64,000 nucleotides of DNA from a virus (lineage: Duplodnaviria > Heunggongvirae > Uroviricota > Caudoviricetes), in the IMG/VR virus record IMGVR_UViG_647533110_000001; one strand, written 5' to 3'. Position 1 is the first letter of the stretch. Each line of letters starts with the position of its first letter. Below, piece by piece: positions 15,117 through 64,000 of this stretch. The notes under the pieces are model-generated. The model was not told the origin of the DNA and ran no database searches. It saw nothing but the letters and a program-made list of their open reading frames with translations. The translations under genes were made by a program, and so were the position numbers.

Positions 15117-15429
15117 ATCAGAAAAGACTCGTATCGCTGGAACCCAATATGATAGACGAATAAAGCTCACTCCAGACCAAAAAGAATATATAAAATGGTT
15201 GAGAGAAAAGCAATTAATCAGTTACTCTAAACTTGCTAAAATATTTGGAGTGAGCAAGCGTCTTATTCAATTTATTTGTTGCCCAGACAAATATTTGAAA
15301 AATAAAGAGAGTTTAAAACAACGTAAAGCAGAAGGGCGATACAAACCTACAAAAGCAGAATGGGCAGCAACAATTCGTGAGCACAGGAGATATAAGGAAC
15401 AACTCAAAAAGAAAGGAGATATAAAATGA
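15106..15429 (+). CDS. small HTH DNA-binding protein (transposase/resolvase-type HTH), paralog of 21119..21427
   Basis: KLTPDQKEYIKWL...LAKIFGVSKRLIQFI resembles IS-transposase N-terminal HTH; ATGA-coupled to the RT gene. Confidence 0.55.
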   Translation: MPYKSEKTRIAGTQYDRRIKLTPDQKEYIKWLREKQLISYSKLAKIFGVSKRLIQFICCPDKYLKNKESLKQRKAEGRYKPTKAEWAATIREHRRYKEQLKKKGDIK

Positions 15430-47109: not shown

Positions 47110-48900
47110 AATGTAAGGTAAGCGTCTCCAGGATGCCGTATCAGCATAAGAAAAGCAGGGTCACTGGCCCTGCTTGTTCTTTTTCCAGCGGTCTGGAAGT
47201 ATATCTCTGTACGCTTCCAGTGTGGCGGACCTCTGCAAGACATCCGCTCTGTTAAGTATGTCTGTGAGGTACTCGAAGAAGTTTATCTTGTGCAGCCTGC
47301 ATGAACATGCGAGAGAGTAGAAGATGCAGCCACGCTCTGCTCCGGCATGGCTGCCGAAGAAAAGGGAATTCTTTCTGGACAAGGATATGTACCTGTTGAT
47401 TCTCTCAATGAGATTATTGTCCCACGAGTAGTCTCCACCAGTAGTTATAGCTTCGATACCATCCCATTCGTTGAGCATGTATTTGGCGGCCTTGAACATC
47501 TGCGACTTTGGAGGATATTTCCGAGGTTGAGACTTGATCTTGAGAAGCATCTCCTTCATCTGCCTGAGTATATGAGACGCATACTCCTGTCGCCACCTCA
47601 GATTATCTTTGACCGTCCAGCCGTCTTCTCCGATCTTATGCTTATGTTCATTCTGATAGAGCTGATTGGCTAGAGTCAGTATCTTGTCTGCATCAGCATT
47701 GCCTTTCATGTCCAGGAACTCTCTCTTGCAATGCTGAAGACAGGCTAGTCTTAATATCTTTCCTCCGGACTGTGCTGCGACTTTCTTGTAAGCTCCCAGG
47801 CCATCTGACTGTATCGCTCCGCTATATCCCTTGAGCTCTTTCAGTATTACCTCTTCGCTTCTTGAACCATCATCATAGAAGAAGTATGCCAGGCCGAGAT
47901 GTGCTGCTACAATCACCCAGACATAACCCTTGCGGCTTCCCTTGCCGTCATTCAGTTCCTTCTTTACGAGAACTCTGTGGTAGGTCTCATCGCAGCAGAG
48001 ATAGTTATCTTCTTTGACTGCCTTCTGCATCGCCTTGTATAAGTTTTCGAACAGAAGTGCTGTCTTCTTCAGCAGCCCGTGAGCGGTCTGTTTGTCGATA
48101 TTGAAGCCGTTCTCGTTAAAGTACGCCACGATACGTTCCACCGGCATTGAGTACAGATAACGGAGCTGGGCTATGCCTGAGATGAACGACCCGTCGAAGC
48201 TGGAGTTCTGAAGAGGTGCAAGAGGAGCCTTTGCGCTTACAAGCTTATCTCCATCCTTTACTGTGTGGATATAATACAAGTGTTTGATGAACCTTGGAGG
48301 TATCATCTCATAGCGGACAGTCTCTCTTGTACTGAGCGGCTTCCGTCCTTCCATGCCGTCAGGATACACGTCATGCTTGACTGTCTCCATCTCGAAATGC
48401 ATATTACGCTTTGCACCATTGTTACCGCGGGACTTGCGCTCAACTTCCTTCTGAGCAATCTCTTCTTCTGTCTTAGGAGTTACTGGAGTAGATGCTTGTT
48501 TCTCTGACTTCTTCTCAAGAAGCTTTGACATGCCACGAACTTGATTGTTGGCCTTGTCGAGACTCTTGTCGCGTTCTTTCAGGAGAGACTCCAGATTCGC
48601 TATAGTCTCGCGAAGCTCTGAGATGGTCACGACCATGGCATTCATGCTGGCAGACATGTTGTCAATAGTGAGTCTCAGCTGATCGTTTGTCGCATTCGAC
48701 GCCTTCAGCCGAGACTCCAAAAGTTTGATTATCATGTCCTTTCCCATACATCTAAGGTACGAAGAAAAACGAGATATGTAATAGTTTTTAAGATTTATTT
48801 TATTGGTAATATTCTTAACCATCTTAAAAATATACACTTAAATATTTTATAATCAATATATTATAAGAAAGGTAATTTTAATGGAGAAACAAATAAGGAA
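47110..48900 (-). mobile_element. IS66-family insertion sequence, single ORF; boundaries approximate
   Basis: terminal GTAAGCG motif at ~47116 as in IS66 inverted repeats; opposite inverted repeat not found; no tnpA/tnpB ORFs. Confidence 0.45.
47161..48747 (-). CDS. IS66-family transposase
   Basis: N-terminal coiled coil; DETYHRV, GYVWV, DGLGAY and CLQHCKREF (zinc/H..RRxF) motifs; C-terminal DNNLIERINRYISLSRKNSLFFGSHAGA..YSL; start chosen at MGKDMII. Confidence 0.8.
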   Translation of the reverse strand: MGKDMIIKLLESRLKASNATNDQLRLTIDNMSASMNAMVVTISELRETIANLESLLKERDKSLDKANNQVRGMSKLLEKKSEKQASTPVTPKTEEEIAQKEVERKSRGNNGAKRNMHFEMETVKHDVYPDGMEGRKPLSTRETVRYEMIPPRFIKHLYYIHTVKDGDKLVSAKAPLAPLQNSSFDGSFISGIAQLRYLYSMPVERIVAYFNENGFNIDKQTAHGLLKKTALLFENLYKAMQKAVKEDNYLCCDETYHRVLVKKELNDGKGSRKGYVWVIVAAHLGLAYFFYDDGSRSEEVILKELKGYSGAIQSDGLGAYKKVAAQSGGKILRLACLQHCKREFLDMKGNADADKILTLANQLYQNEHKHKIGEDGWTVKDNLRWRQEYASHILRQMKEMLLKIKSQPRKYPPKSQMFKAAKYMLNEWDGIEAITTGGDYSWDNNLIERINRYISLSRKNSLFFGSHAGAERGCIFYSLACSCRLHKINFFEYLTDILNRADVLQRSATLEAYRDILPDRWKKNKQGQ

Positions 48901-49597
48901 CAAAAATAGGAATTAAAGTGATTTCTCATTTTTCTATTTGCACTCTGTTTCTTTCTTTTCGTTTGTTTGCTTTCAGAGTGCATTCCGAGCAATTTTATCT
49001 GCTCTCATCATTCGAAGAATTTGCTCCTAACTTTAACTAACAAATTATTTGCAGCTCATAAAGAGAATACAAATTATTATCTCTTGAAGTTGTATTGCTT
49101 GTAGCAAAGATAATCTTTTTTGTACAGGCAGCCAAAAATGCCTGCCTATATTTAGTTTAATTTAGTTTAGCATATATAAGGCTAACAAACTAAACCAAAC
49201 TGGATTTTCATGTTACTTTTTGTGATTTTCCCATTCTACCCATACAGCCAAAAGAGAAGATAAGCTCTTGCCTCTTTTCTCTTTTCGCTGCGATACTCTT
49301 TTACTTCATAGCCACCTTTTACACACATCCGTACCGAGCAAACTCCCACATGCTCGCATATCAACTTTCGGTCTGCCCGATGGGAATTGTGTCGCAAAGG
49401 TATTTGCCATGTCTTTATTGTATGCAAGGTTGTAACCTGAAGGTTCACTACAAAATCTCCACGCTCCGCTTCGCAGAGGTAGTATTTTGTAGTGAAACCC
49501 TGCATACATAGCCATGCCACCTGTTGAAGCGACATAATTTCAATCAAGCCCGAAAGTAAGTGAAATGCTACAGGAGGGAAAGTAACAAACTTAAAAC

Positions 49598-49909
49598 TTG
49601 GTATTTATGGCAAATTATGCAACCAACATTTTCCACGCAAGAACGGAAAATAAAACAGACCTCGACAAAATAGAGGCTTTCTTGGATGACACTTTCAGCG
49701 AATTTACCAATCGATATGGTGATAGTGTAGATGCAGAATTTTCCTCTCGTTGGGTGTATCCAGAAGAAGAAATCAAAAAATTGGTAGAATCGTTGGAGGA
49801 CAAAGATAAAGTCTATATCAAGATTCTAACCTATGAATTTGAAGACGAGTACGTGAGCTTTAGAATATTCTCTCAGGGAGAATGGAAGGTCAAATTAATA
49901 ACTGAATGA
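49598..49909 (+). CDS. hypothetical protein
   Basis: 103-aa ORF. Confidence 0.4.
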   Translation: MVFMANYATNIFHARTENKTDLDKIEAFLDDTFSEFTNRYGDSVDAEFSSRWVYPEEEIKKLVESLEDKDKVYIKILTYEFEDEYVSFRIFSQGEWKVKLITE

Positions 49910-50091
49910 GTAGAAGAAGATAAAGTAAAATTATGGTCTATCCTACACTTTGCTTATTCTATAAGAGACACACGGATGGAACGATTGTCGGTGATTTCGA
50001 CAACAAAATCACTGTTCGTTTCATCTGTGGCAAAGAGAGAGTATTAAATACTGTGATGAAGTAATTTTTACAATTTTACAACATAGAAACC

Positions 50092-50421
50092 ATGACACAG
50101 ATAGCAATGAAATTCGTCCAATGGGATGTGCCCGAATTGGAAAAACTGAAAGATAGCAAGGTTTACAAATTACGGGAACGTCTTGATAATGGCGACAAGT
50201 TGAGTCGGGAAGAAAAGAACTGGCTCACCCGCAATGTGAAAGAGTGCTGCCATTTCAAAAGAGGTATCGCTTTAATGGGCTACCGTTTTGACTTCTCCGA
50301 TGTTCTCAAACGGTATTTCGTGAAACAACACGGACATATTGCCGAATATTATACCATTGACAAAACCGCACTACGTTCTGTCCTATATGGTCGAATTGAA
50401 GATATAATCGAAGTACAATAA
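50092..50421 (+). CDS. hypothetical protein
   Basis: 109-aa ORF. Confidence 0.45.
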   Translation: MTQIAMKFVQWDVPELEKLKDSKVYKLRERLDNGDKLSREEKNWLTRNVKECCHFKRGIALMGYRFDFSDVLKRYFVKQHGHIAEYYTIDKTALRSVLYGRIEDIIEVQ

Positions 50422-50435
50422 AAATCAAAAGAAGC

Positions 50436-50789
50436 ATGAAAGTAACAATTGAACACAGCTTTTGCCCCTATTGTGACGAGGTAACTGAACTTTATTTCCG
50501 AATCATTAACACGATTCTTTTTTCTGGCAATGAGGCGGAATTGCGTGAAAGCATGAGACAGTTGGAGAAAAAAACTCCACTTGATGAATATTTCACATAC
50601 GGTTACGGTGCACGACACCTTTGGGTTTGCCAGCGACGTCCCAGCGACAAAACCAAAATATTCGAGCATGATTCCACCTCCCTTTATAGTTCACCTTCCT
50701 CCGATATAGTACGGGCAATCCGTTCCGGTTGTCCGTTACCCTGTTTTAACACCCCTGTTTTACAGTTTTATTCATCCCTTTCTATTTGA
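50436..50789 (+). CDS. hypothetical protein; C-terminus runs into direct repeat copy 1
   Basis: N-terminal CPYCDE zinc-ribbon-like. Confidence 0.4.
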   Translation: MKVTIEHSFCPYCDEVTELYFRIINTILFSGNEAELRESMRQLEKKTPLDEYFTYGYGARHLWVCQRRPSDKTKIFEHDSTSLYSSPSSDIVRAIRSGCPLPCFNTPVLQFYSSLSI

Positions 50790-51030
50790 TTGTCATTTAT
50801 TATCGTTTCGCTGCTGCCGTGCGACCTCTCGTGGACTTATTTTCCCGCAAAGGTAATAGGCTGCTCCAATCTTGCCAATGCCGGCGTTCCGCCGCGAGTG
50901 AGCCGCAAAAATCTTCCTCTCCGTCTGTCGAGCGTATTTTCCCGCATCAGCCTTGTCAGATTGTTTCCGCCACCTTTTGGAGGCAGAAAAATAAATCCCA
51001 AAGGTCGCAAACAGGTTGAACAAAGGGAAA
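50670..51030. repeat. direct repeat copy 1 (~360 bp), about 97% identical to 53588..53955
   Basis: aligned by eye; identical except for a handful of substitutions and one 1-nt indel. Confidence 0.9.
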
Positions 51031-51058
51031 TAGTAACAATAAAAACAAAAATAACATT

Positions 51059-51280
51059 ATGAAAACAGAGATTAGGCAGAATGGCAAAGTGATACTATCG
51101 AGTACAGACGATATATCCATTCCGATGATTTTCAAAAACTTATGTGGTAAGAACTTTTCTGGAAACGACTATCAAAACTATCTCAGAACAGTTTGTCAGG
51201 ATATTGGTGTTACGACGGGGGCGATTGAGTATTATGCCGACAACGTTTTGATTGAGAAAGCAACTATTCCTGAATTTTAA
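51059..51280 (+). CDS. hypothetical protein
   Basis: 73-aa ORF, first gene after repeat copy 1. Confidence 0.4.
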   Translation: MKTEIRQNGKVILSSTDDISIPMIFKNLCGKNFSGNDYQNYLRTVCQDIGVTTGAIEYYADNVLIEKATIPEF

Positions 51281-51292
51281 AAACTATATACA

Positions 51293-51865
51293 ATGAAAAG
51301 GAAAGAGAAAGCAGCAGTAGATGAATTTGTTGCCCTTGTAGGAGGCAAGACATGGGAGCCTGTACGCCATAAATGTATGGGTAAATGGAGTGGTATGACC
51401 GATTACGGTTTTGTCATAGACGGACGGATAACGCTCTTTGTTTCCAATAGTATGGCATACTTTAAGAAACGGATTCGTGAGTGGATTAAGTCGATACATA
51501 CTTTTGAAGCGAAGAAAGATTGCTACCTTCGCTTGCTACGTGAACAAATTGAAAAGGACAACGACAAGGCAAAGGACGAAAAGTTAAATCCTGTCAGACT
51601 GATAGACATTGGCATCTTATCCCCCGAAAGCAATAGCCCGTTTGATTTTTTTACCCCTTATGTGTTAGTCGAAATAAACGGCAGGCGGTTCAAGCATCAA
51701 ACAGCGGAGTTAAGTTGCGCTATTATGGTGGATAGTTTGGCAGGATACCTTGAAGAATGCAACTGCAAGGATATATACACGGCAAGGGCAGTGCGTACAC
51801 CTGACTACATTTTTTGCGGTGTGCGGTTTGACTCCCGTGATAATATGTATAAGATTGGAAAGTAG
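51293..51865 (+). CDS. hypothetical protein
   Basis: 190-aa ORF. Confidence 0.5.
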   Translation: MKRKEKAAVDEFVALVGGKTWEPVRHKCMGKWSGMTDYGFVIDGRITLFVSNSMAYFKKRIREWIKSIHTFEAKKDCYLRLLREQIEKDNDKAKDEKLNPVRLIDIGILSPESNSPFDFFTPYVLVEINGRRFKHQTAELSCAIMVDSLAGYLEECNCKDIYTARAVRTPDYIFCGVRFDSRDNMYKIGK

Positions 51866-52004
51866 AGATTAATGATGTCTGAAGAAGTTATCACTTACAA
51901 CGATAACTCCAGTCGTTTTAAAGGACGGCATCAGCATTTGACCTACTAAATACATAAGTTCCCAATTTACGATTGGAGACTTATGTATTTTTCTGTATGG
52001 AAAA

Positions 52005-52358
52005 CTAATCAAATAATCGCTGACTTATCATCCAGTCATTAAGCACGTCCGGATCTACACGATTTGTAAGATTCACATTTTTACTCAAACAACCGATTTT
52101 CTCACCTCTTAAATAAATAACTGGTGGGGTTAATGTATTCGGATTGTATGGACTTAACGATGAACTGGGACTTCCATATATGGAATACCGATTCTTGAAA
52201 GATATACTTGAAAAGTGACTACCGTATATATTCTCGTTGTTGGATATGGAATCAGGAGTAGATGTGTTCAACGACAATCTGCCTAAATACAAACCGTCAT
52301 TTGCCAATAGAAACGATTCTTTCCTTGAAATTCTGGTATCTAAACCTATTCTATCCAT
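52005..52358 (-). CDS. hypothetical protein
   Basis: 117-aa ORF. Confidence 0.4.
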   Translation of the reverse strand: MDRIGLDTRISRKESFLLANDGLYLGRLSLNTSTPDSISNNENIYGSHFSSISFKNRYSIYGSPSSSLSPYNPNTLTPPVIYLRGEKIGCLSKNVNLTNRVDPDVLNDWMISQRLFD

Positions 52359-52377
52359 GCCCTATGATTTAACGCCA

Positions 52378-52863
52378 TTATTTAATAATGCCATAACGTC
52401 TTTTAGTTGCATTATCGAACACCTCTGTCTCTCTTAGAAACTGCATTACCCGTTCCCTGTCTTCGGAAATCAGGCAACCTTTCAGTTTACCGTTCTTTTC
52501 CGTGATTTTTAATTTTGAAAGTTCGAATATATCGGAACAATCCAGCCAACTGTCATAGTCCAGAATATCACGATAGTTCCGAACCATCAAAGGATATTGG
52601 CAGTCCAGTAGCTCTTCCGACCTCTTGGAAGAATCTATTTCCGAATTTATCAGTAAGGCACCGATAGCGACACCTTCCGGAGTAAAGCCGATAATAACAA
52701 TATATTTATTGCGGTCTTTATATCCGTCTTTTAGTATCAGTCCGTCCTCTTCGTCCAAGGGGACATAAATAATGTCACCAATTTTGACTGATGACATATC
52801 TACTTGCTCAGCTTTGGCCATTATAGCTTTCAGCCTTTCCAATGCACCGGTTTTGTCGTCCAT
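52378..52863 (-). CDS. candidate toxin partner of Panacea-domain protein
   Basis: 161 aa, starts 6 bp after the Panacea gene stop on the same strand. Confidence 0.45.
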   Translation of the reverse strand: MDDKTGALERLKAIMAKAEQVDMSSVKIGDIIYVPLDEEDGLILKDGYKDRNKYIVIIGFTPEGVAIGALLINSEIDSSKRSEELLDCQYPLMVRNYRDILDYDSWLDCSDIFELSKLKITEKNGKLKGCLISEDRERVMQFLRETEVFDNATKRRYGIIK

Positions 52864-52868
52864 TTGAT

Positions 52869-53459
52869 TTAAGATAAAGCGTTCTTGACAATCTGCTTTT
52901 CTCGGATATAATCTACCATGTCCTCGGTAGCTTTTCCTGCCCGGGCTATATCTATAATGGTAATGAAGTTCTTTTGAGGATCATCCTGAATGCGTGTCAT
53001 CGCCTCTTCCCATGCCGAGTCATGCGACAAATCGGACAAGTCATAAGGGTCTGTATCCTTATATTTAGCGATAGCAGCGTCAAGACAACGTTTGTTGGCA
53101 CCTGATATATAGTCCATATCGGGTACGGCAGAAGTATATACCTTCTTGTCACGAACCTCTATGTCTGAAAGGAACTCGTCAAAATTCCCGTCCAAGGGTT
53201 TGCCTTCTGCAATTTGCAGTGCCTTGTAGGTATAGGCTGGCACCGGGCCATGCTTCAATGCTCTGAAAGAGTCTTCGACAATCACTTTGCCATATTTGAC
53301 AAGATGGTCCTGTTGGGCAAAATAAAGTATTTTAAATAACTTTATATAGTCCACTCCTTGAGTGAAACTCTGCATGATGTAGAGTACCACTGCTCTTATT
53401 TTAGCAATCTGTATAGCTGTTTTCATTTCAAAAAAATCTATGCGATTACAAAGATACAA
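52869..53459 (-). CDS. Panacea-domain (DUF4065) protein, putative antitoxin
   Basis: KLFKILYFAQQDHLVKYGKVIVEDSFRALKHGPVPAYTY matches the Panacea core KLxKLLYFA...AW.YGPV. Confidence 0.55.
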   Translation of the reverse strand: MYLCNRIDFFEMKTAIQIAKIRAVVLYIMQSFTQGVDYIKLFKILYFAQQDHLVKYGKVIVEDSFRALKHGPVPAYTYKALQIAEGKPLDGNFDEFLSDIEVRDKKVYTSAVPDMDYISGANKRCLDAAIAKYKDTDPYDLSDLSHDSAWEEAMTRIQDDPQKNFITIIDIARAGKATEDMVDYIREKQIVKNALS

Positions 53460-53587
53460 CTAATTTGCTGAATAATACGCTCATGATACAAAAAAAATAG
53501 TCCGTTGCATTTTTTTACGACATTTAATATAGTCGTCATTCTGAGAGTAATAGTCTGCAATTATCAAGAGATGGGCCAATCCACCCG

Positions 53588-53955
53588 ATTCCACCTCCCT
53601 TTATAGTTCACCTTCCTCCGATTATAGTACGGGCAATCCGTTCCGATTGTCCATTACCCTGTTTTAACACCCCTGTTTTACAGTTTTATTCATCCCTTTC
53701 TATTTGATTGTCATTTATTATCGTTTTGCTGCTGCCGTGCGACCTCTCGTGGACTTATTTTCCCGCAAAGGTAATAGGCTGCTCCAATCTTGCCAATGCC
53801 GGCGTTCCGCTGCGAGTGAGCCGTAAAAATCTTCCTCTCCGTCTGTCGAGCGTATTTTTCCGCATCAGCCTTGTCAGATTGTTTCCGCCACCTTTTGGAG
53901 GCAGAAAAATAAATCCCAAAGGTCGCAAACAGGCCGAAAAAAGGGAAAAAAAGAA
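53588..53955. repeat. direct repeat copy 2 (~360 bp), leader of the methylase-helicase gene
   Basis: same sequence as 50670..51030; ends just before ATG 53966. Confidence 0.9.
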
Positions 53956-53965
53956 AGGTTAAATT

Positions 53966-56900
53966 ATGAGTTACAACAAATTGAAATCATTGGTAGCGAA
54001 CGTGGAAGCCATAGAAACGGCAATGAAAATCCAAGTTCAAGGCAGGCAGGCCACTGCGGAAGAAAAAGAAATTTTATCCCGATATTCTGGTTTCGGGGGT
54101 ATCAAAGAAGTGTTGAATATAGGTACGGACAAGCCCATAGGTGGTGATATGCAAGAACCGATACAAAGATTGCAGGAGTTAATCAATGCTTACCCTCATT
54201 TCACAGAACCCATGCGACACAATGTCATAGAGGGTATCAAAGCATCTGTACTGACAGCATTTTACACTCCTAAATTCCTTGTTGATGCAGTGGTGCGGCA
54301 GATACACGCCACGTTCAGCGAAAACGGCCTCAAAATGCGTTCATTTCTCGAACCGAGTGCAGGTATAGGCGGTTTTCTGCCCATAGCCATGTCCGGCACG
54401 TATGGCTATGCCATTGAGAAAGATCTCATTTCGGGGATGATACTTTCCCTGCTCCATGAGAACACGCTAACACGGACGGCTGCATTTGAAACCATTGGAG
54501 AACAAGGTTTTGAGCATACAACTTTCGATGTCATAGCCTCCAACATCCCGTTTGGCAATTTCCGGGTATTCGATGCGGAGCTGTGGAAGAAAGGCGGTAT
54601 GTACGAACAGGCCACCAAGACCATACACAACTACTTTTTTGTCAAAGCGATGGAGTTGTTGAATGAGGGTGGATTATTGGCTTTCATCACATCGAGGGGC
54701 ATAGCCGACACGCCCGGTAACAAGTTCGTGCGTGAATATCTTGTAAATCATGCAGACCTGATAAGTGCAATCCGTCTGCCCGATATGCTTTTCATGCAGA
54801 CAAGCGGTATAGAGGTAGGCAGTGACCTGCTGATATTCCAAAAGCACACGCACAAGACGGTACTCTCACAACGGGAACAACTGTTTTTACAAGTAGGCAG
54901 GGAAAAGGCGGACGCCATAGGCACAATGACCGAATACGCCAACAAATTGTTTACCATGCCGAAAACTACCCTTGCAACAGGTAGCCGCATTGTACAGAAC
55001 CAATACGGAAAATATGTGCGCAAATACCAATGGCAGGGAAATGAAAATGCCATGTCGCAATATCTCGCCGCACTGCTGAAACTCGACTTTGGCCGATATT
55101 TCCGCAAAAGTCTTTTCACTGGGAACGGACAGGGCAGCGAACATATGCAAATGTCCCTTTTCGGGAATGTAGCGATGAAACAAGTAGAAAAAGGTAAACG
55201 AGCCTACACGGATGGGGTGGAAGCATGGATGAAAGACGGCGCAATGGTACTGTTTGAGGGCCAGGTGGGTACTATCCAATATCGAAAATCAAGTCTTTAT
55301 CAAGAGGTAGCCATTGATTTTGTGCCGGTGGACGAGGGTAAGGTCAATACAGATAGGGCGAAAGACTATTTTCCTATACGCAAAGCATACTTTGAACTGT
55401 CAATCAAAGAAAGGGAAGAACAAAAAGAGGATAACGGGTTGCGTAGAGAGTTGAACGCCCGATACGATGCCTTTGTTGCCAAATGGGGCTGTTTCCACGA
55501 GAACGACAACAAGGAGTTTATCATGCTTGACAGCCTCGGTGTGGAAGTCTTTACAATAGAAATGCAGCTTGGAAAGGATTTAGTCAAGTCCGATATCATG
55601 CGTGAACCTGTGGCGTTCAAGAAGATAGACTCGAACAAAAGGCTGACACCGATTGAAGCGTTGGCAAGCAGCTTGAATTTCTACGGCAGGGTTGATATGG
55701 ACTACCTGATGCAGTCCACGGACAGCACCGAGGAAGAAATCATCGGCGACCTCAAAGGTGAGATATTTTACAATCCTGCTATTGGGGAGTGGGAGCACAA
55801 AGGCAAGTTCCTTTCAGGCAATGTCATAACCAAATGCAAGGAGATAGGTTCTTACTTGTCCGAACTCACGGACAGGGAAAAAGATTGGACGGAAACTGCT
55901 GTAAGGGCTTTGGTGGATGCGACACCCGAAGCGATACCCTACGAGGAACTCGACATTAACATGGGTGAGCGTTGGATTGACACAAAGTTATACGCCGATT
56001 TTGCAACTGAACTTTTCAAGGTAGAGACAAGTGTAATGTATTTCGATGTGAACGACACCTACATGGTACGTCTGCAAAGTTACTCTCCGGTGGCTTACAA
56101 CACCTATTTCGTCCGCAACTATAATGGTGAGGATTTGTTTGTTCATGCCCTGCATGATACTGTACCCGAAATTACGAAAAAGATATACCGCAATGGTGAT
56201 AAGGTGCGTGTGCCGGACGAGGAAGCCATACAAGAGGCAGCCACCAAGATACAGGAGATTAGAGACCGTTTCAACTGCTGGCTTGACAGGCAGCCGATAG
56301 AGGTTCGGGACGAGCTGGTAAGGGTATATAACGAGCGTTTCAACTGCTATGTTAGGCCGCACTATGACGGTTCGGCACAAACCTTTCCGCAGCTCTCTTT
56401 TGAGCAATTTCCATACGATAGCCTCTATCCCTCACAGAAAGATGCTATCTGGATGATTAAGCAGAACGGAGGCGGTATCTGTTGGCATGAGGTAGGCACA
56501 GGCAAGACGATGATAATGTGTGTTGCCGCTTACGAAATGAAACGTCTCGGACTGGCACACAAGCCGCTTATTATCGGGCTGAAAGCCAATGTACACGAAA
56601 TCGCCGATACGTTCCGTAAGGCATACCCTACGGCCAAAGTTCTCTATCCGGGCAAGGACGATTTTACCGCTGCCAACAGGCAAGAGGTCTTTTTAAAAAT
56701 CAAGAACAACAACTGGGACTGCATCATACTCACGCACGACCAGTTCGCCAAGATACCGCAGTCAGAAGAGACCATGATAGATATATTCACGGAAGAGCTT
56801 GCCGATGTGGAACGTAACCTTGAATTTTTGGAGCAGTCCACTATGCGTTACCGTAGCGGAAAGATGCAGGAGGGGTTAGAAAAGCGCAAACAGAACCTTG

Positions 56901-57082
56901 GGGCTAAATTACAAGAACTGCGTATGAAAATCAATAATCGGAAAGACGATGCTGTGGACTTCCACACAATGGGAATAGACCATATTTTTGTAGATGAATC
57001 GCATTATCAGAACTTTTTTGAAAATTCGGCTTTTGTTGGTAAGATGTTAGTGTATAATATGTTACAATATTATATTTTCTGA
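53966..57082 (+). pseudogene. N6-DNA methylase/SNF2-helicase fusion gene, 5' part, interrupted by an insertion at ~57010
   Basis: MTase motif VIASNIPFGNF, helicase Walker A HEVGTGKTM and DESH; frame leaves homology right after DESH and stops; continuation resumes at 62994. Confidence 0.7.
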
Positions 57083-57418
57083 TTAATATCTATAGTAGGT
57101 TTGCAGAAGAAATTTAATTTGTTATTTTGGAAAGTACAGAGATTTACAATTCTATTATAAAATGGGGCTTTAATGCTTATCTATTGAATCATAAAAGCAT
57201 TTCCTCTAAAAGACAAAGGTAAGATAAATGCAATATCAAATTCAATAATCCCAACTTATGCTTGCATATTCCAAAGCATAAAACATACACTATGCTGATA
57301 GAAGGAATAAATAGTTCTTTCCACCAACTATTAATAGCAATCATCAATAAGACCTTAGGTTAAGAAAACAACTTAACAAAAAAACGAAATCAGCAATATT
57401 ATCTCAATCTATTTGTTT

Positions 57419-57979
57419 TTAGTGAACGATTAGATCTTTTGGAACAATTGCATCAATTTCATCTTCTTCTGTTGTTGATTCCTTGTTTGTTCTCAACGCT
57501 TTCTCAGCTCGTTTTACAGCAGCAGGAAAAGTATGAGGTGCTTTAATATACAGCAAATCTTCTTCCTCTCGTAATTCATTTCTTTTATCTACAATTTCAT
57601 TATCATTCAACAATCCGGCTAAAATATCTGTCATTAGAGATTCGTACTTATTCCTTAGGTCATGTAATTTTGCTGCAAAATTTTTGTTTAATTTAGCCTT
57701 TTCTTCAAGTTGTCCATCTTTATAGCGCACTGTAAAATAAGACAAAAGTATTGCTAAGAAAGCTGTAATTGATCCTGATATTTGAGGCTCGATAAAAGAT
57801 AATATGGAACTCAAAGCACCACCTGTCGTAAGGACAGACAACCAGCATGTAATATTTTTCACGCATCGATCTTTTTCAAGATATATATCCCCTTGAATCT
57901 CTTGAATTTTGTGTGACCACGTTACTTTAACATAACGTCCTTCTATACATTTATATAACAAACGAGTTGATTCATTCAT
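57419..57979 (-). CDS. 2-TM protein, candidate SLATT-like effector
   Basis: two adjacent TM helices (ITCWLSVLTTGGALSSIL / ITAFLAILLSYFTV) then charged helical tail; overlaps upstream gene stop. Confidence 0.45.
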   Translation of the reverse strand: MNESTRLLYKCIEGRYVKVTWSHKIQEIQGDIYLEKDRCVKNITCWLSVLTTGGALSSILSFIEPQISGSITAFLAILLSYFTVRYKDGQLEEKAKLNKNFAAKLHDLRNKYESLMTDILAGLLNDNEIVDKRNELREEEDLLYIKAPHTFPAAVKRAEKALRTNKESTTEEDEIDAIVPKDLIVH

Positions 57980-58571
57980 GATTTAATAATCTTTTTATTA
58001 GCATTCGTCTTAGTGGCTCAGACTTCAGATAGTTTCGGAGCTTAGACTTTGCAATTCCTATACCCAACTTTGACTTATACATTTTTCTGATACTTTCTAT
58101 GTCACCAATCTCAATGTAATATTCTATTCTTGCATCATCACCATGCCGTTCGGCAGGCCATGGTGCTTCATTATACCTCTCATAGTAGGCTACCCAATAG
58201 AAGAAAGAACTGAGATTTGAGACAAAACTTTGTAACTGAAATCCATGTGGATAATACTCTGAAAATTTTTCAGGTAGCCCCAGACACAAAGTTCCATCTA
58301 CATTGATATGCAAATCCCCATGAAAAATTTGTTTCCTTTGGGCAATCTTCTTTATCTTGTTATCAGGATTATAAACTATAGGATACTCATTCCTGTTTTT
58401 CATTCGCCACAGTCGTACCTCTATTTCAAAAGTTGCCTTAATAATAGGTTTACTTTCATAACGATGATTAATAAAGAAAGGTCCATGTATTATGGACTTT
58501 TCTTTATCATATGTGAGCATTGGATAATTATCCCTTAGCCAATTCTGTTCTTCTTCGTTGAGCCGAACCAT
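57972..58571 (-). CDS. hypothetical protein in NTase operon
   Basis: 199 aa, overlaps both neighbours. Confidence 0.45.
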   Translation of the reverse strand: MVRLNEEEQNWLRDNYPMLTYDKEKSIIHGPFFINHRYESKPIIKATFEIEVRLWRMKNRNEYPIVYNPDNKIKKIAQRKQIFHGDLHINVDGTLCLGLPEKFSEYYPHGFQLQSFVSNLSSFFYWVAYYERYNEAPWPAERHGDDARIEYYIEIGDIESIRKMYKSKLGIGIAKSKLRNYLKSEPLRRMLIKRLLNHE

Positions 58572-59476
58572 GGACGACTTGGATTTTGTTGAATATATAC
58601 TCCTTGATTTTCTCGTTTTGAATTCTCTTTCGTTTTAGGGAACTCTTCTCCAAAAATTTTAATCCATTCTTCTGATGCCTCCATAGGCTTATCGTTATCA
58701 TTGTATTCTAAAGCCTTTTGGGCACGATTAAATGCTTTGTCAATATAAGATTTAATACAATCATTACATCTTGAACGCATATAATCAAAAAAGTCGAATA
58801 CAATTTTATCGTATCCTATATTATTTGCTCCAGACGCATAGTTGGCATCCAAAAATGCTATTATATCATCCATCCTCTCACAAGATTTATAACTCATTGA
58901 AGGAGTATTGTGCGCCCACGCTTTAAGCATCTTGGCTAAATCACGCGTAAGACCAGAAGTTGCTTTATTGGATTCGTTAAACTTGTCTATTTCCATTCTA
59001 GGATCAAAATAATCCCACGAGCCACCATTCTCTGAGTTAGGAATAAGAAATGTCCCATCTTCTTTTTCCAAAGCAGGAAGAAGCTCTACATTATGATGGT
59101 TTTCTGCGAATTGCACGAGAACTACTTTACCCCAAGCTTTGATTTTGTCCGTAGTGGTATATTTCTCTTTTAACACGTCTTTTATTTCTTGAAGCAAAGC
59201 GCATTGTCCGTTACTCTTATAGCCATCATATTTTTTAAAAGTATCTTCAGGTATCTTGAATAGGACATCAATATCCTGTTCTTCTGTAAATGGCCGTACA
59301 TTTGTTTTGGTTTTATATGAACCAAATAGATACTTTTTACTACTATCATAAGCTCCTTCTCCATAGTAGAATTTGTAAAGCTTTTCACATACACCAGTAT
59401 ACTTTGTCTGTGCATCTTCTTGTTGACCAGATGTCAACGTGATGTTCGATAAAAAATCTTTGAATGAATTTTCCAT
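58535..59476 (-). CDS. SMODS/CD-NTase-like nucleotidyltransferase
   Basis: pol-beta NTase signature FGSYKTKTNVRPFTEEQDIDVLF (GS..x..DxD); 313 aa, the size of CBASS cyclases / SMODS. Confidence 0.55.
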   Translation of the reverse strand: MENSFKDFLSNITLTSGQQEDAQTKYTGVCEKLYKFYYGEGAYDSSKKYLFGSYKTKTNVRPFTEEQDIDVLFKIPEDTFKKYDGYKSNGQCALLQEIKDVLKEKYTTTDKIKAWGKVVLVQFAENHHNVELLPALEKEDGTFLIPNSENGGSWDYFDPRMEIDKFNESNKATSGLTRDLAKMLKAWAHNTPSMSYKSCERMDDIIAFLDANYASGANNIGYDKIVFDFFDYMRSRCNDCIKSYIDKAFNRAQKALEYNDNDKPMEASEEWIKIFGEEFPKTKENSKRENQGVYIQQNPSRPWFGSTKKNRIG

Positions 59477-59659
59477 TAAGAATCGTTTTTAATTTTATTA
59501 AAAAATAGCAAATTTCGTGCCAACACATTAACATATTTAGAATTTCAGACATAAGAAAGGACTCTTTGTCTGATTGGCACAATTTAGTTGGAATATCAGA
59601 CAAAGTGTCCTCATAGGTTAGGGAAATATGCCAACTAAGAATATTTAAAAGTATAAGAA

Positions 59660-60718
59660 TCAGTCGGCTGCCCCAATTAGAGGTAATCCAAGAAATTCTT
59701 CAAGTCCCCCTTTGTTAGCCATTTTCCATCTTTTTTGTAACTTCCTTTGATCTTCATTTTCGAGTGTCTCTAACGCTTTTGATTCCTGTTCGGTTGTTAT
59801 GTCCAAATATACCATTGTCGTTTGGATACATTCATGTCCGAGTAGATACGATATTTGTGCTATATTCATGCCATTTTCGAGCCAATGTGAGGCTTTGGCA
59901 TGTCGGAACTGATGGGCATGCAGATTCAAGGGTACTTCTTTACATATTTTTTTCGCTATTGCGGCATACCGCTTCAATAGTTTATTCACATTCTCGGCAG
60001 ACATTGGTACGTAAATCCCCCTGCTTTTGGAATAGAACAAAAGGGCATCCGGATTATTGGGATTCGGATGGCATTCCGCAAGGTATTGTTTTATGTACTG
60101 TACTGGTTTGGCCAAAAGTGGTATAGGACGCTTTTTTCTGCCTTTTCCGATAACGATAATTCGCGGTTTCGGACCATCTGTAAAAATATTGCCAATTTTC
60201 AAAGAAAGGAGTTCGTTAATACGGACTGCCGTAGAATACAAGGTCAGCATTAGGGTATAGTCTCTGAGACCGCGAATCGTCCTCTGGTTGGGAACTGTGA
60301 AAAGGGCATTCACGGCCATCTTGCTAAGCCCCACGACTTTTCTCTTGGGTGTTTTCTGATTAGGCACTGTCTCTGCCTGAAGATAGGAAGTCATAAACGC
60401 TATGTCTTTATCAGCCATATATTTTAGGAAGGCTCTTAGTGCCGACAGCCTTACATTACATGTTGCAGGGCTGCAAGACCTGTGTTCTTTTAACCATAGA
60501 ATCCATTCATTCATGTTTTCTAAAGAAAAGCACTGGGCACTCAATGTCTTCGGAGAGATCTGCTTGACACTCCTCAAAAACATCACATAAAGTGCCACTG
60601 AAGTTTCGTAGTTTCTTTTGGTATAAGGACTGCATGCCTTTATTGATGGCACGTGGTATTCAAGCCATTCATTCAGGTATTTTGCAATTAGCAATGCTTG
60701 TGGATTAATCTTTTTCAT
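59660..60718 (-). CDS. tyrosine recombinase (RIT trio, third)
   Basis: R (AVRINELLSL), HAHQFRH, LGHECIQTTMVY with catalytic Tyr. Confidence 0.8.
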   Translation of the reverse strand: MKKINPQALLIAKYLNEWLEYHVPSIKACSPYTKRNYETSVALYVMFLRSVKQISPKTLSAQCFSLENMNEWILWLKEHRSCSPATCNVRLSALRAFLKYMADKDIAFMTSYLQAETVPNQKTPKRKVVGLSKMAVNALFTVPNQRTIRGLRDYTLMLTLYSTAVRINELLSLKIGNIFTDGPKPRIIVIGKGRKKRPIPLLAKPVQYIKQYLAECHPNPNNPDALLFYSKSRGIYVPMSAENVNKLLKRYAAIAKKICKEVPLNLHAHQFRHAKASHWLENGMNIAQISYLLGHECIQTTMVYLDITTEQESKALETLENEDQRKLQKRWKMANKGGLEEFLGLPLIGAAD

Positions 60719-61712
60719 ATTGCGTATTGGGTATTAGAAATTCATACATTTCTGCATCAGCAGATTCTATAATATCGGAGATTCCCGGTGTCAAGGAGTA
60801 ATAGGCCATTGTACTTTCCACCTGCTTATGTCCCATGCTTTTGCTCAAGGCCAGTAACTTGTCATGAACTGTAAATCCCTGATGATTCCAACTATTGATA
60901 TTCTCGATAGCATAATTGTGTCTTAATTCATAGGGTATGGCTTTGGAACTATTGCAACTTTTCCATAAAACTCTAAAGTGGTATGTTACCCAGGCAGGAG
61001 AATGTGCCTTGTCATCCAGAGTAGGGAAAAAGTACTCACGATTTGGAAGTATATCTGATATTCTGTCATTGTAAATATGCATTAGCAAAAGCATCGTGTC
61101 ATGAAGTACGACAAAATGCTGGTCATATCCTTTTCCTGACTTTATTGACACGACTCCACTTTCAAGGTTTACATCATCGCGTTTAAGCCTTATGGCCTCA
61201 GTTGTCCTCATCCCTGAACTATACAGTAAGCGGAAAAAAACCGGAAGCGTTATCCTCTGTATTGTCGACAGGATACCTTTTCTTGGTTTTATATTGTCAC
61301 AGGCAGTGAAAAATCTAATCAGTTCTTCATGCGTGAAGGCGTGAGGTATATAAGTTTTTGGTGATGACTTCGGTACTGGCGGAAGAGTTATATGGGTCTT
61401 TCCTCGTTTTTTTAGGTATTTGAACAAGTCAAGCACGGGATAAATCCTGGATACACATGAGTTTGTGCTCTCGGTTTCCCGCTGTTTGCACCATCTATCT
61501 GCTATTTCTTGAGTCAGTTCCGTATGTCCGGGATATTCTCTGGCACAAAAATGATCGAATAATACCACGTTTTTCACATAACTGTAGCTTGTACGTCCTG
61601 ATATCTTACGGTATCTGATATATCCTTCGATGGAATTGGCAAGAAATGATTGTAACTTCATTGATAAAACACCTCCTTTCTCACTGGGTAATTTTCTATG
61701 CTTAGGGCACAT
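60705..61712 (-). CDS. tyrosine recombinase (RIT trio, second)
   Basis: MRTTEAIRLKRDDV, YELRHNYAI, MGHKQVESTMAYY; overlaps both flanking recombinase genes. Confidence 0.75.
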   Translation of the reverse strand: MCPKHRKLPSEKGGVLSMKLQSFLANSIEGYIRYRKISGRTSYSYVKNVVLFDHFCAREYPGHTELTQEIADRWCKQRETESTNSCVSRIYPVLDLFKYLKKRGKTHITLPPVPKSSPKTYIPHAFTHEELIRFFTACDNIKPRKGILSTIQRITLPVFFRLLYSSGMRTTEAIRLKRDDVNLESGVVSIKSGKGYDQHFVVLHDTMLLLMHIYNDRISDILPNREYFFPTLDDKAHSPAWVTYHFRVLWKSCNSSKAIPYELRHNYAIENINSWNHQGFTVHDKLLALSKSMGHKQVESTMAYYSLTPGISDIIESADAEMYEFLIPNTQYEKD

Positions 61713-62872
61713 TCTTTGAGGCTTTTAAACTCGGCATTAAGATAAGGATTAAGAGACTTTGGGGAGGCATGTCCCAGCGTGGAGCTTATTACAGGCTGTT
61801 GGACTCCGGCTCGAAGCAATGATGTTGCCACATGATGGCGGAAAAGGTGTAATCCCTTCCTTTCAGAGGCTTTGAGCCTTATACCAGCCTTATGCATGAT
61901 TTTTACACATATTGCATTAAGATTGGATGTATGGAGCTTTCTATATGGAGAATTCACAGTAAGGAATACGTATGGTTCATAGCACTTAGGGCGTTCCTCT
62001 ACCAGATAATCATAGATAGCATTGCCAACAACAGCTCTAAGCGGTAGTGTTAATGCCGTTCCTGTTTTCGATTGGGTAATAATAATCAGGTCTCCTTCCC
62101 AATCAAAATCTTTCATAGTCAATGCCGATATATCGCAGCTACGCAGTCCTGTGTACAATGCAATGGTCGCAATAGCTTTGTCCTGTAGAGATATGGTCTT
62201 ATCATGTTCCAACACATGCTTTATTGCCTCGATCTCAGCTTCAGTAAGGTACTGTATGTTCTTTCTACTATTCGGTATGGTGGGCAGGTATGACATTATA
62301 TGTTCTATAATGCCATCATTGTAGTAAGGGACACATTTTTTCAATCCATATTCCACACTATATTTAAATGAATGACTTCTTATCGGTATATCATTTGGGG
62401 AAAACACCATTTGAACGGCTTCCTCATCTATAGCATCCAAGGAGTTTATTCCATATTTCTGTAAAGTTAAAAAGAACGAACTCATGGCTACTTTAATGGT
62501 TGGAACCATTTTTGTGTCTTTTCCAATGAATTTACATGCTATGTCCACGACTTTCATAAACTCTTCACATAGCTGATGGTAGTTGGATGGCTTGTGATAG
62601 TGTTTGTGTCCATCAGGTAAAGAAGCTTCCTCATCATAACGCTGAATGATACGGAGCAAACGGCTTTTATTGGCAAAAGTATGTTTGTTGTGCCATAACT
62701 TCGCTAACGTATGCTCTATATCAGCATAATTTTGCCATTCGTAACACATGGAGTTGCTTACAATCCACTTGGTTAAGTGGTTGATGTACCATATATATTG
62801 GGAAGTGTAACCAACTTCCTTCATATAGGCAACAAGACCAATAACTTTTTCTTTTAAATGCAGTATATCCAT
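61658..62872 (-). CDS. tyrosine recombinase (RIT trio, first)
   Basis: LRSCDISALTMKDF, LHLFRHHVATSLL, LGHASPKSLNPY. Confidence 0.8.
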   Translation of the reverse strand: MDILHLKEKVIGLVAYMKEVGYTSQYIWYINHLTKWIVSNSMCYEWQNYADIEHTLAKLWHNKHTFANKSRLLRIIQRYDEEASLPDGHKHYHKPSNYHQLCEEFMKVVDIACKFIGKDTKMVPTIKVAMSSFFLTLQKYGINSLDAIDEEAVQMVFSPNDIPIRSHSFKYSVEYGLKKCVPYYNDGIIEHIMSYLPTIPNSRKNIQYLTEAEIEAIKHVLEHDKTISLQDKAIATIALYTGLRSCDISALTMKDFDWEGDLIIITQSKTGTALTLPLRAVVGNAIYDYLVEERPKCYEPYVFLTVNSPYRKLHTSNLNAICVKIMHKAGIRLKASERKGLHLFRHHVATSLLRAGVQQPVISSTLGHASPKSLNPYLNAEFKSLKECALSIENYPVRKEVFYQ

Positions 62873-62993
62873 AACACATTAATATTAGTGACACGGGTAA
62901 TATACAAAAATAATCAGAACTTATCATGATATTAATTTGCCGATTTTTAGTAACATCAAATACAAAAATGGTATAATAAAAAAGTTCTGATAA

Positions 62994-64000
62994 TGCGACA
63001 AATCCAAAATTCCGGATTTATCGCATATTTTCAAGAACTTAATGTTCCAGACACGCCATAATCGTGTGGCAGGTATCGGCAACACCAAAGGCTCTCAAAG
63101 GGCAATGAACCTCTTGTTCGCCATTCGTGACATCCAACTTCGTACAGGTCGTGACCTTGGGGCTACGTTTCTGTCGGGTACAGTGGTGGTAAATGCACTG
63201 ACCGAACTATATGTGATGTTCAAGTATTTGCGTCCGCAGGAGCTTCAACGGCAACGGATTAGCTGTTTCGATGCGTGGGCAGCCATATTCACAAAGAAAA
63301 CGGCAGATTATGAGTTGAACGTGACAGGCTCGGTGAAGCGCAAAGAGCGTTTTCGTACTTACATCAAAGTACCGGAACTGGCAATGTTCCTGCGTGAGAT
63401 TACGGATTACCGTACAGCCGACATGATAAATCTTGATGTGCCTGAGAAGAACGTGCGTTTCCTTTCTTATCCCCCGACAATTGAGCAGGAGGAAATGATA
63501 GGACGCTTGGTATCTTTTGCCGGTAGCGGCCAGTGGGAGGACTTGGGGCTTGACGTTCCGCAACCCGACAACCTCGACAAGGCTAAAATGTTGGTTGCGA
63601 CCAATGTAGCCCGAAAAATGGCTCTTGATATGCGCTTGTTGGGTTGCAAGTTCAAGGATGATGCCGATAACAAGGCTTCTATCTGTGCGAGGACAATCTA
63701 TGACTACTATATACGCTCGAATGACAATCGGGGTACACAGTTCGTGTTCAGCGACCTTGGTACATACAAACCGAACGAATGGAACATATATACCGACATC
63801 AAAGAAAAGTTGGTACGGCTCGGTATTCCTGCTGATGAAATACAGTTTATCCAATGCGCCACTACCGAGAGGACAAGAAAAAAGCTGTTTGAAGAAATGA
63901 ATAACGGCAAGGTGCGAGTTCTTTTTGGAAGTACGACCATGTTAGGCACAGGTGTGAACGCCCAACAAAGGGCTGTGGCGGTGCATCACCTTGAAATACC
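62994..64000 (+). pseudogene. methylase/SNF2-helicase gene, 3' continuation, runs off window
   Basis: open frame: ...SHIFKNLMFQTRHNRVAGIGNTKGS...FSDLGTY...VRVLFGSTTMLGTGVNAQQRAVAVHHLEIP (helicase C-terminal motifs). Confidence 0.65.

Follow-up and report, generated by a model that had tools for sequence, protein, structure and literature searches.

Small transposons ferry anti-phage systems, and Tn7-like elements carry defence systems as cargo, the latter with DDE/TnsABC machinery in place of the tyrosine recombinases found at the locus described here. RITs consist of three overlapping Xer-like recombinase genes bounded by terminal inverted repeats, with a length of ~3.5 kb (PMC3414803; PMC10214605, Table 1; PMC8138268), and their transposition has so far not been reproduced in the laboratory (PMC10214605). 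GInts are also tyrosine-recombinase trios, and their cargo includes restriction-modification systems and, often, addiction modules (PMC5385486). E2-CBASS is a described class of which 616 systems have been counted; in the Serratia CdnG-E2 system, the E2 covalently primes or regulates the cyclase, whose C-terminal Gly is used for conjugation (bioRxiv 10.1101/2022.05.25.493364), with further mechanistic precedent available (PMC11153139). Here, we describe a ~6.0 kb region of a 64,000-nucleotide stretch of DNA (the window) that is very probably a RIT-type mobile element with a complete E2-only CBASS anti-phage operon as its passenger. The initial annotation had proposed that such a pairing of signalling module and recombinase-trio transposon was new, which stands only in part: E2-CBASS is known and GInts carry cargo, but no description of RIT cargo or target specificity was found in the literature searched. 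The defence system is ordinary, and what is unusual is a recombinase-trio element with such cargo at one precise site.

Three adjacent, co-oriented and overlapping tyrosine-recombinase genes lie directly upstream of the operon (59660-62872; all features in the table). Their A-B-C order is kept in 20 related loci from Bacteroidales, Clostridia and a Patescibacteria MAG, with the ritB-like gene keeping its middle position in relatives. RitA residues R244, H342, R345, H368 and Y377 do not vary across 13 homologues, and the motifs of the other two, read by eye without a reference alignment, are HQFRH...GH...VY for RitC and YELRH...GH...AYY for RitB, in which Tyr replaces the first His. NCBIfam matches for the three recombinases are Xer-like and all below cutoffs, and GmtY membership is not reached (31.4 bits vs a cutoff of 340). 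Related elements share the repeat core CATTATCAGAACTTT at either end. In the window, the element spans 6000 bp when the 21-bp repeats are counted in full and 5988 bp when measured across the conserved nine-base cores (57005-62992). The palindrome and 7-mer that follow the ritA-side repeat are inserted DNA, as they are missing from uninterrupted relatives, and each related insertion has the palindrome, invariably towards the host gene's 3' end. Cargo of ~2.7 kb, whose ORFs include no further recombinase or transposase, fills the space between ritC and the cargo-side repeat. G+C content is 0.28-0.36 for the cargo (57000-59500), 0.34-0.44 for the recombinase genes and 0.46-0.47 for the host gene.

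Table. Features of the element and its insertion site, with positions numbered from the first letter of the window.
Feature	Position	Strand	Evidence or remark
Host gene, 5' part (N6-adenine methylase + SNF2-type helicase)	53966..56998	+	N6_Mtase, Eco57I and ResIII matches
Cargo-side terminal inverted repeat TCGCATTATCAGAACTTTTTT	56999..57019	.	Variable 6-mer at 56999-57004
AT-rich non-coding cargo tail, GC ~0.28	57020..57418	.	From SLATT stop codon to inverted repeat
SLATT_4 two-transmembrane effector (predicted), 186 aa	57419..57979	-	Pfam, NCBIfam, PADLOC, hydropathy
E2-fold (UBC-like) accessory protein (predicted), 199 aa	57972..58571	-	Motif H88-I-N-x4-L-C96-L-G-L-P
CD-NTase (SMODS) cyclase (predicted), 313 aa	58535..59476	-	Pfam, PADLOC and PDB sequence matches
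Spacer between ritC and cyclase gene	59477..59659	-	17-bp-stem hairpin at 59558-59611
ritC-like tyrosine recombinase, 352 aa	59660..60718	-	Phage_integrase 2.1e-29 and SAM-like N-domain
ritB-like tyrosine recombinase, 335 aa (alternative start: 318 aa)	60705..61712	-	Phage_integrase 3.8e-15
ritA-like tyrosine recombinase, 404 aa	61658..62872	-	Phage_integrase 1.2e-25, C-terminal half
ritA-side terminal inverted repeat AAAAAAGTTCTGATAATGCGA	62978..62998	.	Inverted-repeat search, relatives
21-bp palindrome CAAATCC-N8-GGATTT, then 7-mer ATCGCAT	62999..63026	.	Between repeat and resumed host gene
Host gene, 3' continuation (IFKNLMFQTRH...)	63027..64000	+	Translation; runs off the window
Empty insertion target, methylase-helicase gene GTNGAYGARTGYCAYATTTTCAAGAAC			

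By its gene layout, inverted repeats and palindrome the element is assigned to the RIT type, its recombinases being placed only as Xer-like. Like described RITs, it has overlapping recombinases of about 400, 335 and 350 aa, inverted repeats and a palindrome near one end, and is inserted within another mobile element, as RITs are, including in ICE genes. It differs in that the window copy reaches 6.0 kb with a defence operon, against ~3.5 kb for described RITs and for its own close relatives, and in that the lineage has a precise target, the DExH codons of a methylase-helicase gene. GInt/gamma-mobile-trio, SE and Tn554 elements similarly have recombinases at one end, variable downstream cargo and site-specific insertion, and the short variable 6-mers at the window junctions recall the 6-bp footprint of SE/Tn554 (PMC10214605). 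However, the fourth small gene of that group (ginD/srap/tnpC) has no counterpart in the window element, all three window recombinases appear to keep a catalytic Tyr-type motif, and inverted repeats form the ends, in place of the direct imperfect repeats of the comparison group.

The three cargo ORFs are on the minus strand and overlap by 37 nt (cyclase and E2) and 8 nt (E2 and SLATT), as expected of an operon, and their strong profile matches place them beyond chance. The largest had been read as a nucleotidyltransferase with a pol-beta signature of the CD-NTase/SMODS kind, and both points are borne out. The signature FGSYKTKTNVRPFTEEQDIDVLF forms cyclase residues 51-73 and contains G52-S53 and D68-x-D70; the protein matches Pfam SMODS (PF18144) at 3.9e-28, above the gathering score, and PADLOC cyclase model PDLC00786 at 2.8e-58 with nearly the whole profile covered. 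A PDB sequence search returned CD-NTases exclusively, the nearest being the 6p8u/6p82 and 9sa4 cyclases, all distant at E ~1e-8 (6p8u, E 1.3e-08). The likely catalytic residues are G52-S53, D68, D70 and E131, invariant in relatives 66-70% identical; the third carboxylate is Glu (E131), aligned to what in P. aeruginosa CdnD is the third Asp. Scores for CBASS_cyclase_a, CBASS_cyclase_b and cGAS (90.7, 44.5 and 18.4 bits) are under the NCBIfam equivalog cutoffs of 200, 200 and 150, which places the protein as a CD-NTase yet as no equivalog of these subfamilies. The window cyclase ends in ...KKNRIG, with Gly last; relatives 66-70% identical end in ...SMIKK or ...SSTK, and their last 25 residues or more are without Gly. 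In the index of a public collection, 199 blocks contain this exact protein, and among the organisms in its clusters at 90% identity are Bacteroides fragilis, B. cellulosilyticus, B. xylanisolvens, B. thetaiotaomicron, Phocaeicola vulgatus and Fermentimonas.

The 199-aa ORF, initially listed as unknown, exists and overlaps its neighbours as described, but is unknown no longer: it is predicted to be an E2-fold protein, in which H88 and the predicted catalytic Cys, C96, are invariant among relatives. No sequence-level match was found among the solved structures searched, and the best Foldseek match is the catalytically dead Vps23 UEV domain. No E1 domain and no JAB/Cap3 partner accompany the gene. 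A look-up of Porphyromonas E2 homologue P0250 gave no record. The 186-aa protein had been taken for a SLATT-type protein with two transmembrane helices and a charged tail, and this agrees with its matches to SLATT_4 in Pfam (PF18186; 1.4e-37, 129.4 bits vs a cutoff of 27) and NCBIfam (2.5e-38, 131.4 bits vs a cutoff of 55) and to the PADLOC CBASS 2TM effector model (1.4e-42), with two adjacent hydrophobic peaks near residues 54 and 75 (Kyte-Doolittle, 19-residue window) and a charged tail of 97 residues (16 K/R and 21 D/E). These matches rule out a holin.

Because the middle protein has a predicted E2 fold, the module, which the initial annotation had aptly called CBASS-like or SMODS-SLATT-like, is classed as an E2-only (type II short) CBASS of cyclase, E2-like protein and SLATT_4. 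A stand-alone E2-fold protein with a predicted catalytic Cys and an adjacent same-strand effector gene are both present, and PADLOC CBASS models are matched. The cyclase-E2-SLATT order recurs without recombinases in relatives (E2 55-58% identical) in other defence contexts, next to BREX (L039) or type I restriction-modification genes (L041-L043). SMODS-SLATT conflict modules have exactly this pairing of SMODS and SLATT_4; unlike them, the window operon has an E2 gene between the two and lies inside a transposon. The Serratia marcescens CdnG-E2 system (PDB 8hsb) is further away: its E2 is ~11% identical to the window E2 with no sequence-level match, its CdnG is not detectably close to the window cyclase, its effector is 2TM-SAVED with an exonuclease gene as opposed to SLATT_4 and no exonuclease gene, and the C-terminal cyclase Gly that it uses for conjugation is unconserved in the window's subfamily.

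Going by what is known of these families, the three Xer-like recombinases would insert the element site-specifically, and the element would then spread between cells via a conjugative element. Upon phage infection, the CD-NTase would make a cyclic oligonucleotide, with the E2-like protein covalently priming or regulating the cyclase via the invariant Cys96, by analogy with Serratia CdnG-E2. The signal would activate SLATT_4, leading to inner membrane damage and abortive infection.

The interruption of the host gene falls exactly at the DExH codons (VDE|C/S-H), its 5' part stopping at the V-D-E codons of motif II of the helicase. In homologues that lack an insert the sequence runs FVDECH|IFKNLMF, and the joined host protein aligns with these homologues end to end at 88-91% identity. 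The gene is assigned to a Bacteroides fragilis conjugative element, and its type, the mhgA methylase-helicase, has been linked to exclusion between conjugative elements and reported as frequently disrupted (PMC8102008). A GA1 T6SS ICE was considered as host element; T6SS genes are absent from the large ORFs of the window, and TssD was seen only in the flanks of related loci. A SocA/Panacea-type antitoxin gene lies nearby.

That the operon is cargo of a RIT, as initially annotated, is supported by where the element begins and ends, by relatives whose sites are empty, by the apparent independent entry of the entire unit into another copy of the host gene and by the existence of cargo-less relatives. 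In loci L034 and L035, the RIT and CBASS unit is 94.8% identical to the window element and RitA protein is 88% identical, while the host gene, hit in the same motif, is only 68-70% identical and the element has the opposite orientation; comparison thus shows what reads as an independent entry of ritABC and CBASS together into a diverged host-gene copy. This sign of movement comes only from the lineage with the 88%-identical RitA, exact-protein look-ups having given the window's site in all ten places listed. Three cargo-less relatives (L018, L019 and L037) measure 3471-3488 bp repeat to repeat with the same repeats and the same target, and their resemblance to the window breaks off at position 59683, at the ritC end, so the ritC/cyclase spacer marks the inner edge of a cargo slot. 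In a sister lineage (L014-L016), this slot holds a TIR-SLOG and two ThsB-like TIR genes, and in L017, a DUF6236 gene; these relatives with other cargo likewise have the window element's ends and target. A simple target-site-duplication model was rejected because the flanking 6-7-mers match on the two sides in some copies (the window, ATCGCAT; L015, GTGCCAT) and differ in others (L035, L036 and L019).

A broader reading, which we put forward tentatively and rate somewhat short of even, is that this RIT lineage is a site-specific carrier of interchangeable nucleotide-signalling cassettes that homes to DExH codons and uses an undescribed recombination pathway. The cassettes observed are E2-CBASS, the Thoeris-like TIR-SLOG/ThsB set and the DUF6236 gene, and the targets may be methylase-helicase (mhgA-type) genes of Bacteroidales conjugative elements. 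With homing to mhgA-type genes, a single insertion would both knock out an exclusion or anti-restriction gene and bring in an abortive-infection system. The junctions, with a palindrome always on the host 3' side, either orientation of the body and three exchangeable 6-mers, may point to an undescribed RIT pathway, which could rely on symmetry of the attachment site or on an inversion of the DNA between the ends.

Two alternatives accept the operon as cargo and question its role or chemistry. A CBASS-type toxin module could have been selected for stabilising the transposon or conjugative element (addiction), or for conflict between elements, rather than for phage defence. The operon is carried by one mobile element that lies within a second, its insertion destroys an mhgA-type gene tied to conjugative-element exclusion and often disrupted (PMC8102008), GInt cargo often has addiction modules (PMC5385486), and there is the SocA/Panacea-type antitoxin gene nearby; however, close relatives of the three-gene module adjoin BREX and type I restriction-modification genes, the family falls within PADLOC CBASS models, and CBASS systems assayed to date act on phage (including bioRxiv 10.1101/2022.05.25.493364), which leaves this role unlikely. 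Slightly less likely still is an E2-like protein without catalysis or ubiquitin-like chemistry that binds the cyclase only, as a UEV-like adaptor would, as could be read from the Vps23 UEV domain at the top of the Foldseek list, the unconserved C-terminal Gly of the cyclase in relatives and the lack of an E1 or JAB partner.

The remaining two alternatives deny the cargo relationship or the protein identities. The recombinase trio and CBASS could be mere neighbours, by separate insertions or by a RIT landing beside a pre-existing island; in favour of this, copies with an identical cyclase share the window's insertion site in 10 of the 10 places listed. Yet trio and operon lie within one inverted-repeat pair and together exactly fill the host-gene gap, the whole unit recurs inverted in the diverged host gene of L034 and L035, the cargo has no recombinase or transposase of its own, and the slot is filled by three unrelated cargos among sister elements; this reading is largely refuted and very improbable. 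A minimal nucleotidyltransferase of HEPN-MNT systems or an antibiotic NTase, paired with a holin-like 2TM protein, was the outcome named beforehand as fatal to the initial annotation. It is already refuted by sequence comparison, with a probability close to nil: the generic pol-beta matches are weak (NTP_transf_2 and Polbeta, both E 0.14) and face the SMODS match and a CBASS cyclase match over the full length, CD-NTases make up all PDB matches, there is no HEPN partner, and the SLATT_4 match speaks against a holin.

RITs are widespread, and this lineage, under the favoured reading of a RIT with CBASS cargo, provides natural copies that carry cargo or lack it, in either orientation, as well as empty sites and a defined target of 20-30 bp, which is the material needed for testing how a set of three recombinases moves DNA. 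In addition, the lineage suggests how CBASS and Thoeris-like systems spread in abundant human-gut Bacteroidales, aboard a small transposon that is itself carried by a conjugative element, with the same insertion disrupting a gene implicated in exclusion between conjugative elements. As for the CBASS, it contributes a Bacteroidales E2 and SLATT_4 subfamily without a conserved cyclase C-terminal Gly, a useful test case for cyclase priming in E2-only systems.

Scans of 56900-63100 yielded 26 sigma-70 promoters vs 22.6 in shuffled sequence, under a model ill-suited to Bacteroides promoters, and 3 terminators vs 3.3 in shuffles, and an Rfam scan of 48000-64000 gave no match. The sole ORF of the cargo tail has 51 codons (57189-57344), and a gap in the alignment to L034 and L035 (57201-57269) lies within it.

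Features of the window, with one alternative cargo from a related locus, are collected in the table. The three operon ORFs lie where the initial annotation had placed them and overlap by 37 nt and 8 nt, and the nucleotidyltransferase motif quoted there occurs at residues 51-73 of the 313-aa protein. GC content falls from 0.46-0.47 in flanking DNA to 0.28-0.36 across 57000-59500. Window positions 56001-64000 are identical to two NCBI assemblies. NCBI records assign the cyclase, E2-like and SLATT_4 ORF products to Bacteroides fragilis under the names 'SMODS domain-containing nucleotidyltransferase', 'hypothetical protein' and 'SLATT domain-containing protein'.

Coordinates of features in the window and of one alternative cargo
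Feature	Position	Strand	Remark
Stand-alone reverse transcriptase	15426-16694		RVT_1, 4e-20
C5 cytosine methylase	23360-24997		
IS66 transposase	47161-48837		
21-bp inverted repeat TCGCATTATCAGAACTTTTTT	56999-57019 and 62978-62998		element ends
SLATT_4 ORF	57419-57979	minus	186 aa
E2-like ORF	57972-58571	minus	199 aa
Cyclase ORF	58535-59476	minus	313 aa
Three tyrosine-recombinase genes	61658-62872, 60705-61712, 59660-60718	minus	directly upstream of operon
TIR-SLOG and ThsB-like TIR cargo	L016 13307-16416		

The 313-aa protein, initially proposed to be a CD-NTase/SMODS enzyme, matches Pfam SMODS (3.9e-28) and, over its full length, PADLOC CBASS cyclase models (up to 2.8e-58), and the solved structures matched by its sequence are all CD-NTases. 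Its matches to generic pol-beta/MNT families, the outcome named against that proposal, reach an E-value of only 0.14. Relatives at 66-70% identity all keep G52-S53, D68, D70 and E131, the last of which aligns to the third catalytic Asp of P. aeruginosa CdnD; relatives lacking a C-terminal glycine exist. The score falls below the NCBIfam curated equivalog cutoffs, which places the cyclase in a CD-NTase subfamily that those models do not cover. The 199-aa protein has no match in Pfam and NCBIfam searches and matches nine PADLOC CBASS E2 models (best 2.2e-21). Only 19 homologues were found by word-indexed search, and His88 and Cys96, in DLH-x6-LCLGLP, are invariant across the 17 that were aligned. 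An AlphaFold2 model built from the homologue alignment (mean pLDDT 93.2) runs in the order helix, four strands, Cys loop and then helices, as would be expected of a UBC fold; Foldseek returned a marginal UEV match only. The 186-aa protein, with two hydrophobic segments and a charged tail, is of the SLATT type, as had been suggested from its topology, and matches SLATT_4 (Pfam 1.4e-37; NCBIfam 2.5e-38, above cutoff) and the PADLOC CBASS '2TM' effector (1.4e-42).

Judged by its predicted proteins, the operon is an E2-only CBASS, a class named 'type II short' (PMC11153139), of which 616 systems have been counted and one biochemically dissected (bioRxiv 10.1101/2022.05.25.493364). The three-gene signalling module of the initial annotation stands as CBASS, and its 199-aa 'unknown' is now E2-like. 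The same gene order is also found in more distant relatives without the recombinase trio, adjoining BREX genes on a mobilisable element (L039) or a type I R-M system (L041-L043), and so the operon is a self-contained module independent of the transposon. In the proposed mechanism, RitABC would catalyse insertion of the element, infection would trigger the cyclase, Cys96 of the E2 would make a covalent intermediate with the cyclase, and the signal would open or oligomerise SLATT_4 in the membrane.

Comparison with related loci shows the domain identities and operon structure, together with the boundaries, target and independent insertion of the element as a unit. The plus-strand ORF 53966-57082 (N6-methylase and helicase N-terminus) goes out of frame directly after ...FVDESH, and the host-gene frame picks up again at 63021 (SHIFKNLMFQTRH...). 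Joined as one protein, the two halves align over their whole length with uninterrupted homologues (88-91% identity), in whose DNA GTCGATGAATGCCAC directly abuts ATTTTCAAGAAC with no insert. Given the repeat-bounded gap and these empty sites, the trio and CBASS operon form a single insertion of ~6.0 kb at the codons for DExH (helicase motif II). Among the matches listed, the exact cyclase protein lies at the window's insertion site in 10 of 10 places, and a lineage with 88% RitA identity likewise holds the operon. Loci L034 and L035 carry an element 94.8% identical to that of the window, in opposite orientation, within a methylase-helicase gene only 68-70% identical; there the whole unit has inserted independently. 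The shared 21-bp repeats, the empty sites and these two loci bear out the claim that the operon is cargo of a recombinase-trio element.

Cargo-less relatives (L037 and L038, 85% RitA identity; L018 and L019, 61%) have 3471-3488 bp between repeats, with the repeat core and target of the window element. Their similarity to the window ends at 59683, the ritC 3' end, and returns only in the terminal repeat, which places the cargo slot at 57020-59683. In B. xylanisolvens (L014-L016) the slot holds a 655-aa TIR-SLOG protein (LD_cluster2, 1.1e-73) and two ThsB-like TIR proteins, which look like a Thoeris-like signalling set; in another MAG (L017, 3866-4944) it holds a 65-aa ORF and a DUF6236 protein of 296 aa whose C-terminus is hydrophobic. 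A hairpin at 59558-59611 (17-bp stem, 20-nt loop), between the ritC stop and cyclase start codons, could be a terminator or regulatory element at the cargo edge. Four metagenomic copies (L004, L005, L006 and L008) lose similarity to the window inside ritA or ritB (window equivalents 61525, 61772 and 62631) and run into different DNA, which either carries ParA/SSB genes or is the host gene's far end; these breaks are deletions, rearrangements or assembly chimeras beside the element.

In every related RIT copy with readable flanks, the insertion falls at the same point, the DExH-motif codons of a methylase-helicase gene. Junctions were compared between the window (56990-57019 and 62978-63040), L014-L019 and L033-L037. 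In host-gene orientation, the 5' junction reads host GA(Y)GA(R), a 6-mer and TATCAGAAC ..., and the 3' junction reads ... GTTCTGATA, a 6-mer, a 21-bp palindrome (Y)AAATCC-N8-GGATTT, a 7-mer and ATTTTCAAGAAC of the host. This layout is common to all copies compared, with the palindrome always at the host gene's 3' side, and the rit genes and cargo occur in both orientations between the repeats, even within one species carrying one cargo (L015 and L016). The three short motifs all resemble the Cys-His codons (TGCCAT, TCGCAT, AGCCAT); they are identical to one another in some copies and unlike in others, so plain duplication was ruled out. The pattern is reminiscent of the 6-bp footprints that SE and Tn554 elements can transfer (PMC10214605), and the anatomy is compatible with either a symmetric attachment site or an inversion that exchanges the two repeats' sides. 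One RIT and CBASS copy (L033, 4077-11110) has the palindrome at both sides and is flanked by 3' parts of two different genes, a helicase gene (3' half) and an AAA_14/DUF4143 ATPase gene, which suggests RIT-mediated rearrangement or a second target.

Published RITs are ~3.5 kb units of three overlapping recombinase genes with terminal inverted repeats and a palindrome, and are found within other mobile elements, e.g. radC of an ICE; their transposition has yet to be reproduced in the laboratory (PMC3414803; PMC10214605 Table 1; PMC8138268). The RIT literature searched makes no mention of cargo or defence genes, which is limited evidence because the key 2013 survey lies outside that coverage. 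GInt, SE and Tn554 are multi-recombinase elements that do carry cargo, including R-M systems (PMC5385486); the window recombinases do not fit the NCBIfam gamma-mobile-trio model (31 bits, cutoff 340). The initial annotation held the module on its carrier to be undescribed. The defence system is a known class, already detected by PADLOC CBASS models; what is new is its carrier, a RIT-type element whose cargo slot is defined, whose defence cargo is interchangeable and whose target, in a conjugative-element gene, is precise.

The interrupted gene shares its architecture with mhgA, which encodes the methylase-helicase of GA1 T6SS conjugative elements; mhgA is reported to carry disrupting 'transposase insertions' in 31-73% of strains and is linked to GA2 element exclusion (PMC8102008). 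Group II intron-type reverse transcriptases (RVT_N, RVT_1, GIIM) are called in or beside the methylase-helicase 3' part in L001 (3128-4795), L003 and L007, at sites beyond the window's right end; the gene would therefore be one that mobile elements enter repeatedly, in line with how often mhgA is reported to be disrupted. A 300-bp direct repeat lies upstream (50705-51004 and 53623-53922, 98% identical). Its second copy finishes just before 53966, where the methylase-helicase gene starts, and the repeat may be a duplicated promoter or leader. On the minus strand at 52378-53459, an antitoxin-like gene with a SocA/Panacea domain (9.4e-24) precedes a gene for 161 aa without a family match; the two form a candidate toxin-antitoxin pair.
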